From a phage: 64,000 bases of DNA. Location: the sequence record PQ724393.1; one strand, given 5' to 3'. Numbering within the stretch: the stretch's first letter is position 1; every line of letters starts with the position of its first letter. Under the pieces are notes generated by a model. It saw only the letters and a program-made list of their open reading frames with translations. It did no database searches and had not been told where the DNA came from. Position numbers and translations under genes: made by a program. Shown piece by piece: positions 24,531 to 25,670 of this stretch.

Positions 24531-24558
24531 AAAAAAGGCCCAACCTTTCGGAAGGGCC
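24531..24558 (-). terminator. rho-independent terminator (minus strand)
   Basis: A-run then GGCCC..TTCGG..GGGCC hairpin on plus strand. Confidence 0.6.
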
Positions 24559-24650
24559 TAGAATCAGTTCTTGTAGAACCGGAATGGGTTTATGTGGAAG
24601 GCTAACATAGCTTTTATTTTAAAAGTTTCATATATTTCTCTAAGTTAACC

Positions 24651-25140: not shown

Positions 25141-25181
25141 TATTATTTCCTAAGTTAATTAACTTATCTATTTATTATGCC

Positions 25182-25209
25182 AAAAAGCCCCAACCTTTCG
25201 GAAGGGGCC
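25182..25209 (-). terminator. rho-independent terminator (minus strand)
   Basis: AAAAA-GCCCC..TTCGG..GGGGCC hairpin. Confidence 0.65.
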
Positions 25210-25589
25210 ATGCCTTGCGGTAACCTTGTCGGGGTTCCACCTGCTAGGCAAGTGTTTGTACGAAACGCCAGGATTCGAACCCGGTTATTAAGCAGTTGAC
25301 GCTACTCAATATTTTTAAAAGGCCATATCTCGACCATATCCGAACGTTCCGTCAAAAACGCTACTCGGCTTACGGCAAAGATATTTCCTCGAATCGATAA
25401 TTAGGTGCGCCGTTTCTGCTGTGATGTAAGGGGACATTAACAGATCGTAAAGATTTGTTAATGCCAGTCCTTACTCAGGGAACATCAGTCCGACGACTTA
25501 CCGGTAGCGACCCGGTTTCTTGTTTGTTGCGCCGGTGAATGCTGGTAATCAGTCTTCATACGACGGCTTGACTATATAATAGTCTTCAT

Positions 25590-25665
25590 TTGGTATCCCG
25601 CCCTGGGATCGAACCAGGACCGCAAACTTAGAAGGATCGTATGCTATCCATTACACCAGCGGGAC
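25590..25665 (-). tRNA. tRNA-Arg (anticodon UCU)
   Basis: minus strand GTCCCGCTGGTGTAATGGATAGCATACGATCCTTCTAAGTTTGCGGTCCTGGTTCGATCCCAGGGCGGGATACCA; cloverleaf foldable by eye, anticodon loop CTTCTAAG. Confidence 0.8.
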
Positions 25666-25670
25666 ATAGT

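Follow-up and report, generated by a model that had tools for sequence, protein, structure and literature searches.

Orthologs of T4 rnaD and rnaC very probably occupy an unannotated non-coding tract in the tRNA island of a Dhakavirus-type coliphage

The 380-bp tract at positions 25210-25589 of the analysed stretch of phage DNA (64,000 nucleotides; hereafter the window) very probably contains the genes for two stable non-coding RNAs, the orthologs of T4 rnaD (species 2 RNA) and rnaC (species 1 RNA), preceded by a lineage-specific module of 66 nt. The original prediction, made from the sequence, had proposed either a decayed tRNA or a stable small RNA comparable to species 1 and 2 of T4. The second proposal was understated, as the tract is orthologous to both genes. 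Because copies of T4 rnaD and rnaC sit there, the tract is an unannotated known feature, not a decayed tRNA.

The source phage is a T4-like coliphage of the Dhakavirus type. Together with its flanks, the tract shares 99.8% identity with Escherichia phage fDHCT2; with the Dhakavirus-type phages KIT01, QL01, and WG01, the figure is 94-98%. After tRNA-Arg, the minus strand of the window is collinear with the T4 reference (NC_000866; rnaD, 71053-71171; rnaC, 70908-71046), with rnaD and then rnaC in the same order and position. The minus strand reads tRNA-Ile, tRNA-Arg, the insert, rnaD, rnaC, a trailer hairpin, and a terminator, with spacers of 1-6 nt (Table 1). In addition to the two RNA genes, the trailer and terminator are conserved, with 70 of 79 nucleotides identical to T4.

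Table 1 Features of the tRNA island and the adjoining tract (window coordinates)
Feature	Position	Strand	Basis or detail
tRNA-Ile, CAU anticodon	25671..25747	-	ARAGORN (calls Met); Rfam tRNA model, 50.9 bits; 73/74 vs T4 tRNA-Ile
tRNA-Arg(UCU), CCA encoded	25591..25665	-	ARAGORN, Arg-TCT; Rfam, 48.8 bits; 75/75 vs T4 tRNA-Arg
Insert relative to T4	25521..25586	-	Gap in T4 alignment, between tRNA-Arg (+AAUG) and rnaD core
Insert hairpin 1, GACUAU-UAU-AUAGUC	25570-25584	-	Fold
Insert hairpin 2, GCCGUCG...CGGCGC	25529-25567	-	Fold
rnaD core (T4 species 2 RNA ortholog)	25404..25520	-	105/118 vs T4; RNAalifold; covariance model R2
rnaD-rnaC spacer UAAUUA, 6 nt, A/U-rich	25398..25403	-	T4 alignment (AAAUUA in T4)
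rnaC (T4 species 1 RNA ortholog)	25259..25397	-	136/139 vs T4; MFE, RNAalifold, pair counts, covariance model
rnaC acceptor 5' strand	25390-25396	-	CGAUUCG
rnaC arm 2	25320-25389	-	
rnaC linker	25312-25319	-	
rnaC arm 3	25286-25311	-	
rnaC T-arm, 5-bp/7-nt	25268-25284	-	GGTTCGAATCC at 25271-25281
rnaC acceptor 3' strand	25261-25267	-	CGUUUCG
rnaC 3' tail	U at 25260, then ACA	-	
3' trailer with hairpin (~25211-25250)	25210..25258	-	Conserved vs T4; kept in JS98 and UPEC07
Intrinsic terminator GGCCCCUUCC-GAAA-GGUUGGGGCU, then U-run	25181..25209	-	Sequence, fold, T4 X03016 homology

The tract is found in ~810 phage records. Few of these name the RNAs: the matching sequence is labelled rnaC/rnaD in the GenBank records of RB7, RB33, RB68, and Kha5h, and species 1/species 2 RNA in the T4 record X03016. 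In many T4-like genomes in GenBank, rnaC/rnaD are either overlaid by one to three CDSs labelled 'hypothetical protein' or left without annotation, and one record labels the rnaC locus 'tRNA-OTHER'. No Rfam 15 family matches rnaC or rnaD, and none matches the related modules, even when short tracts are searched at E<=10. The flanking ORFs match only PHROGs of unknown function, with no Pfam domain.

Over the 64-kb window, ARAGORN detects two tRNAs in total, each encoded by the minus strand; the Rfam tRNA model concurs. This agrees with the original prediction that only an Arg-UCU and a CAU-anticodon tRNA are intact. Judged by its sequence, the CAU-anticodon tRNA is the ortholog of T4 tRNA-Ile. 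The T4 annotation lists eight tRNAs, as had been stated; the other six have no counterpart anywhere in the window. The homing-endonuclease gene segB separates tRNA-Ile from tRNA-Arg in T4, whereas in the window segB is absent and the two tRNAs are 5 nt apart (25666-25670). The check for additional intact tRNAs in the tract, proposed at the outset, finds none with ARAGORN; ARAGORN and Rfam together report no additional tRNA or tmRNA there, and no Rfam tmRNA match is obtained at E<=10.

The tract had also been taken to be non-coding, and this holds. Stop codons are present in all six frames of 25210-25589, and the longest ORF is 40 aa. The ORFs of 27-40 aa in the tract, and the hypothetical proteins that several records annotate over the match, would fit a tract that encodes small proteins. 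Such a coding role is extremely improbable, however, because substitutions track base-pairing and not codon patterns, and because, among homologs, indel lengths are not multiples of three and whole modules are deleted. In accordance, experiments in T4 identify RNAs, not proteins, as the products of the locus (PMC9697503, PMC3014915).

The T4 rnaC RNA (~140 nt) is 136/139 identical to the window copy, has the same predicted fold, and is likewise the last gene before the operon terminator. The window RNA, known here from sequence, differs from it by three substitutions only, one of which turns a G-C pair of the T-stem into G.U. To describe the fold, we use 16 distinct rnaC sequences from at least five genera, drawn from Tequatrovirus, Mosigvirus, Dhakavirus, Tegunavirus (phiR1-RT), Kanagawavirus (CIP9), Karamvirus (fGh-Ecl01), Citrobacter phage Ursula, Klebsiella phages, and IMG/VR contigs. 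RNAalifold folds the 16 homologs into a four-way junction. When nt 1 is set at position 25397 of the window, the consensus acceptor stem pairs nt 2-8 with nt 131-137. Arm 2 starts with an invariant AGG/CCU helix that closes an irregular hairpin of ~70 nt, the end loop of which is UUUG(A/G)CG. The following linker of 8 nt has an invariant AAAAU inside. Arm 3 is a 10-bp stem with a 6-nt CNNCAA loop, and a single unpaired nucleotide separates it from the T-arm, CCGGG-UUCGAAU-CCUGG.

The pairing pattern of the alignment supports this fold. Paired cells make up 94.7% of the total, compared with 38-52% when the partners are slid by 1-3 columns, and 20 of the 38 pairs show compensatory changes, compared with 2-7 in the slid controls; none of 500 shuffles matches the observed values. 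Covariation is present in every arm. In particular, eight sequences have G-C instead of A-U at acceptor pair 4/135 (alignment columns 4/138). The window rnaC alone, as a single-sequence MFE prediction, adopts the same architecture with a z-score of -3.73. The rnaC covariance model (R1) scores 160 bits on the window and finds one full copy per locus, at 125-165 bits; its weak global matches are genuine tRNAs only. A strict rnaC pattern of 28 specified bases is present in viral and metagenome contigs and has no match in the bacterial and archaeal representative genomes. With its homology to T4, its position in the operon, and a conserved acceptor/T-arm unit joined to two long arms, rnaC is, as modelled from the alignment, a bona fide tRNA-like four-way junction.

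The likeness to tRNA lies in the acceptor stem and the T-arm. As in tRNA, the 7-bp acceptor stem abuts a 5-bp T-stem with a UUCGAAU loop, the stem is followed by one unpaired nucleotide and NCA (CCA in some phages), and the gene is located in a tRNA operon. The minus-strand motif GGTTCGAATCC, on which the original prediction was based, does occur once in the window, as the T-loop motif of rnaC; ~0.03 matches to an exact 11-mer are expected by chance in 128 kb. The same prediction had found no matching acceptor or anticodon stem. The acceptor stem exists: 25261-25267 pairs with 25390-25396, and compensatory changes are seen in other phages. What stands is the lack of an anticodon arm with a 7-nt loop. 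The 5' strand of the acceptor stem, overlooked earlier, is 123 nt upstream, and two of the seven positions in the window are U.U mismatches. The stem of phiR1-RT is perfect (CAGUCCG/CGGACUG). The nucleotides after the unpaired, discriminator-like U are ACA in the window, UCA in phiR1-RT, and an encoded CCA in Klebsiella phages kv_tblp8 and KP21072. Unlike a tRNA, rnaC has neither an anticodon arm nor a normal D-arm, is 139 nt long, begins its acceptor stem with a C-G pair plus an extra 5' U, and is seen by neither ARAGORN nor the Rfam tRNA model. Because the ~70-nt irregular arm and the 10-bp CNNCAA arm replace the D and anticodon arms, rnaC cannot decode.

Three further observations concern the ends and the linker of rnaC. 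The first nucleotide (window 25397) is U in most sequences, where it faces nt 138 (window 25260) as U.U; in locus L013, CIP9, and KP21072 it is A, so that a pair with U138 could extend the stem to 8 bp, as the -1:73 pair does in tRNA-His. The annotated 3' end in T4 is inconsistent, as rnaC is 137 nt long according to X03016 but 139 nt according to NC_000866. We rejected the idea that the linker sequence CUUUUAA imitates the anticodon loop of tRNA-Lys, since conservation across genera is lacking at its four variable positions.

The acceptor/T-arm unit of rnaC places it next to several known RNAs. The tRNA-like domain of tmRNA, the tRNA-like structures at the 3' ends of plant viruses, and YrlA are acceptor/T-arm mimics fused to non-tRNA structure, and their tRNA-like domains imply handling by tRNA enzymes without decoding. 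rnaC is not a tmRNA: the ARAGORN tmRNA search is negative, rnaC has no tag ORF or pseudoknots, and its four-way junction is closed, whereas tmRNA has an open P2 helix.

Could the tract nevertheless be the debris of one or more tRNA genes, drifting neutrally in a shrinking tRNA cluster? A T-arm with the canonical GGTTCGAATCC motif is present, the surrounding island retains two of the eight T4 tRNAs, and rnaC modules come and go like tRNA genes, being deleted in JS98 and replaced in UPEC07. However, the window rnaC is 98% identical to the T4 copy and is recognisable across at least five genera, and T4 itself has the full tRNA set plus the same two RNAs. Arms that are foreign to tRNA are kept by many compensatory substitutions, which are not expected under neutral decay. 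In addition, ARAGORN and the Rfam tRNA model detect no tRNA remnant. The covariation in every arm of an RNA conserved in ~810 phage records thus largely refutes the decayed-tRNA part of the original prediction, which we consider very unlikely.

The second RNA, rnaD, is the counterpart of the ~120-nt T4 rnaD, with which its core shares 105 of 118 positions, the hairpin-plus-long-hairpin fold, and the location between tRNA-Arg and rnaC. The RNAalifold consensus and covariance model R2, both derived from 13 T4-type sequences, give a hairpin (A)CCGG-GUCGCUA-CCGG(U), which reads ACCGG-GUCGCUA-CCGGU in the window; AA and a long irregular hairpin with the closing stem GUCGUCG/CGGCG(C)AC follow. Our reading of the sequences locates a conserved CCC/C internal loop in the long hairpin, flanked by U-A and G-C pairs. 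The helix below this loop varies from UGUU/AGCA to GAAU/AUUC or UAAAU/AUUUA, and the apex of the long hairpin in the window is a different sequence variant from that of T4. rnaD is without acceptor/T-arm geometry. In the alignment, which is fitted to the model so that the counts are biased toward structure, 92.9% of the rnaD cells are paired and compensatory change is seen at 21 pairs; the slid controls give 31-45% and 5-9 pairs. Model R2 scores 149 bits on the window core and 20-36 bits on divergent relatives in CIP9 and in contigs of the Enterobacter/Klebsiella type. We also considered that the CGCUAC of the rnaD hairpin loop might kiss the GUAGCG of rnaC, and rejected this because phages with only one of the two RNAs do not conserve the interaction.

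In five loci (L020, L026, L027, L030, and L041), the rnaD-like domain has a conserved extension upstream on the sense strand, (GAGGGACCAAG...)GCCC(A/G)GAUGGAUGCGCAC. In these loci, the extended RNA probably exceeds T4 rnaD in length by far. A resemblance of the extended Enterobacter/Klebsiella tracts to the CR-I/CR-V regions of RNase P RNA or to group I intron cores was considered and rejected, as no covariance-model match supports it.

The one real difference between the tract and T4 is the 66-nt insert. The original prediction overlooked that one discrete insert accounts for the length by which the tract exceeds its T4 counterpart. In T4, rnaD starts 1 nt after the CCA of tRNA-Arg; in the window, the insert lies between the two, and the rnaD core is intact. 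If the insert is retained in the product, mature rnaD may begin at 25589. The insert is laid out like a miniature rnaD: a first hairpin is followed by AA and by a stem with the closing motif G(C/U)CGUC(G/C)/(C/G)GGCGC. Its fold has a z-score of -3.31 and is better than those of 198 of 200 shuffles.

We consider two readings of the insert, a mini rnaD-like module, the third small-RNA module of the tract, and a functionless recombination scar. The fold favours the module, as does the repetition of the family layout and of both closing-stem motifs: the pattern AAG[CT]CGTC[GC]..[CG]GGCGCA occurs in the window only in the insert and in rnaD, with 0.005 occurrences expected per 64 kb for a pattern that was defined after the insert had been seen. 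On the side of the scar, the insert is restricted to 27 phage records, all at least 98.7% identical, and it contains no covariation information because these records are nearly identical. The idea that it is a plain sequence duplicate of rnaD is rejected, as the similarity of the two is not significant by Smith-Waterman comparison with shuffles (p ~0.1), and covariance model R2 reports no match at the insert. Its junctions are T4-like on the left (CCA-AAUG) and JS98-like on the right (AACA-AGAAACC), which fits a recombination of two arrangements. Since motif and fold resemble rnaD, yet alignment and covariance model do not, the two readings are about equally likely.

The trailer hairpin downstream of rnaC has a fold z-score of -1.87, which is weak by itself. 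The terminator that follows is homologous to the X03016 feature 'pot. stem-loop structure; pot. terminator', and a consensus scanner overlooked it because of its internal U.U mismatches. A near-identical terminator hairpin, GGCCC(C)UUCCGAAAGGUUGGG(G)CC plus U-run, occurs twice on the minus strand, at 25182-25209 and ~24531-24559, ~650 bp apart. The second copy follows the next gene downstream of rnaC, and the same repeat is present in fDHCT2, KIT01, and JS98. Neither a late promoter (TATAAATA) nor a sigma-70 promoter is found inside the tract or the insert. The spacers of 1-6 nt, the lack of an internal promoter-like site, and the terminator point to a single polycistronic minus-strand transcript, which would contain all elements and end at 25181-25209. 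This agrees with T4, where the RNAs belong to a single tRNA precursor of ~1.75 kb that terminates after species I (PMC2330249).

In other phages, the modules of this region are found in different combinations. JS98 retains rnaD and the trailer/terminator, and its rnaC is precisely deleted (locus 701-906). In UPEC07, rnaC is replaced by ~500 bp with an unrelated 131-aa ORF, and rnaD, trailer, and terminator are in place (locus 701-1386); the ORF has no Pfam match and matches only PHROGs of unknown function. Conversely, CIP9, phiR1-RT, Ursula, and fGh-Ecl01 lack a T4-type rnaD but have rnaC. rnaC usually starts 6-7 A/U-rich nucleotides after a tRNA ending in CCA or after rnaD. In Mosigvirus JS09, rnaD and rnaC directly follow a CDS, with no upstream tRNA. 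Each of the modules is thus gained, lost, or miniaturised independently of the others.

T4-like phages of the Kanagawavirus, Karamvirus, and Klebsiella types have one more conserved non-coding element, ~120-146 nt long, immediately upstream of tRNA-Met(CAT). Its sequence is GGCAGUC(C/U)A(G/A)AGAGA...UACUCU(C/U)U(G/A)GACCCGGA; it occupies 477-622 of the CIP9 locus (L002) and is also present in L019, L020, L022, L026-L028, L030, L032, L040, and L041. RNAalifold predicts 33 pairs, nine of them with compensatory changes. The element contains a UGUUCCC motif like that of rnaD and matches no Rfam family; neither the window nor T4 has it.

A minihelix made of acceptor stem and T-arm, followed by an NCA tail, is the minimal substrate for the 5' cut by RNase P, for 3'-end trimming, and for CCA repair. 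Because rnaC has such a minihelix and a U-NCA end, it may be excised like a tRNA: RNase P would cut its 5' end, and the tRNA 3'-end enzymes and CCA repair would act on the tail. The same RNase P cut would free the 3' end of rnaD. Two details of the window copy speak against this scheme, the two U.U mismatches in the acceptor stem and the tail UACA, which is not NCCA.

These features raise the question of whether rnaC and rnaD, structured as they are, act only in cis, as processing or stability elements of the tRNA operon (an RNase P entry site, a protective 3' structure) with no partner in trans. The usual position of rnaC 6-7 nt after a CCA end or rnaD would agree with this, as would the retention of trailer and terminator where rnaC is lost and the ~50 years that have passed without a function being found for either RNA (PMC9697503, PMC3014915). 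We regard a purely cis-acting role as unlikely. The minihelix would suffice as a processing site, yet the distant loops and the linker are invariant across genera (UAAAAAU, CNNCAA, and UUUG(A/G)CG); the invariance of these sequences so far from the minihelix argues for a specific partner of rnaC. In JS09, moreover, the two RNAs have no tRNA upstream. In T4, both accumulate as stable species (PMC9697503). Finally, phage BW1 acquired a convergent SNP in rnaD during adaptation to a semi-permissive host (PMC12685909), which hints at a host-dependent role in trans.

In T4, RNAC and RNAD are real late transcripts, detected by northern blot and RNA-seq, and their function is unknown (PMC9697503, PMC3014915). 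We found no paper that assigns a function to either. As a hypothesis, rnaC may be a non-decoding tRNA mimic that engages a tRNA-recognising factor of host or phage, and rnaD an independent hairpin RNA with the conserved CCC/C internal loop as a putative binding site. A broader proposal, which we offer as speculation with a rather low chance of being correct, is that rnaC, rnaD, the 66-nt mini-module, and the Kanagawavirus/Karamvirus-type modules form a family of mobile structured-RNA cassettes in tRNA islands, in which rnaC, processed like a tRNA and perhaps CCA-tailed, would be a non-decoding decoy or adaptor for a host factor that targets tRNA, e.g. a defence nuclease.

The tract is of a kind already known, the T4 species 1 and 2 RNAs, left unannotated here and in hundreds of GenBank records; the two RNAs have been without an assigned function since the 1970s and without an Rfam family. 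New here are the strong structural selection on rnaC and rnaD across several genera, the tRNA-like junction of rnaC, and the independent gain, loss, and miniaturisation of the modules. These results do not themselves reveal the function; they provide a structural framework and mutational targets for experiments. If the decoy or adaptor role is true, it would account for the host-dependent selection on rnaC and rnaD.
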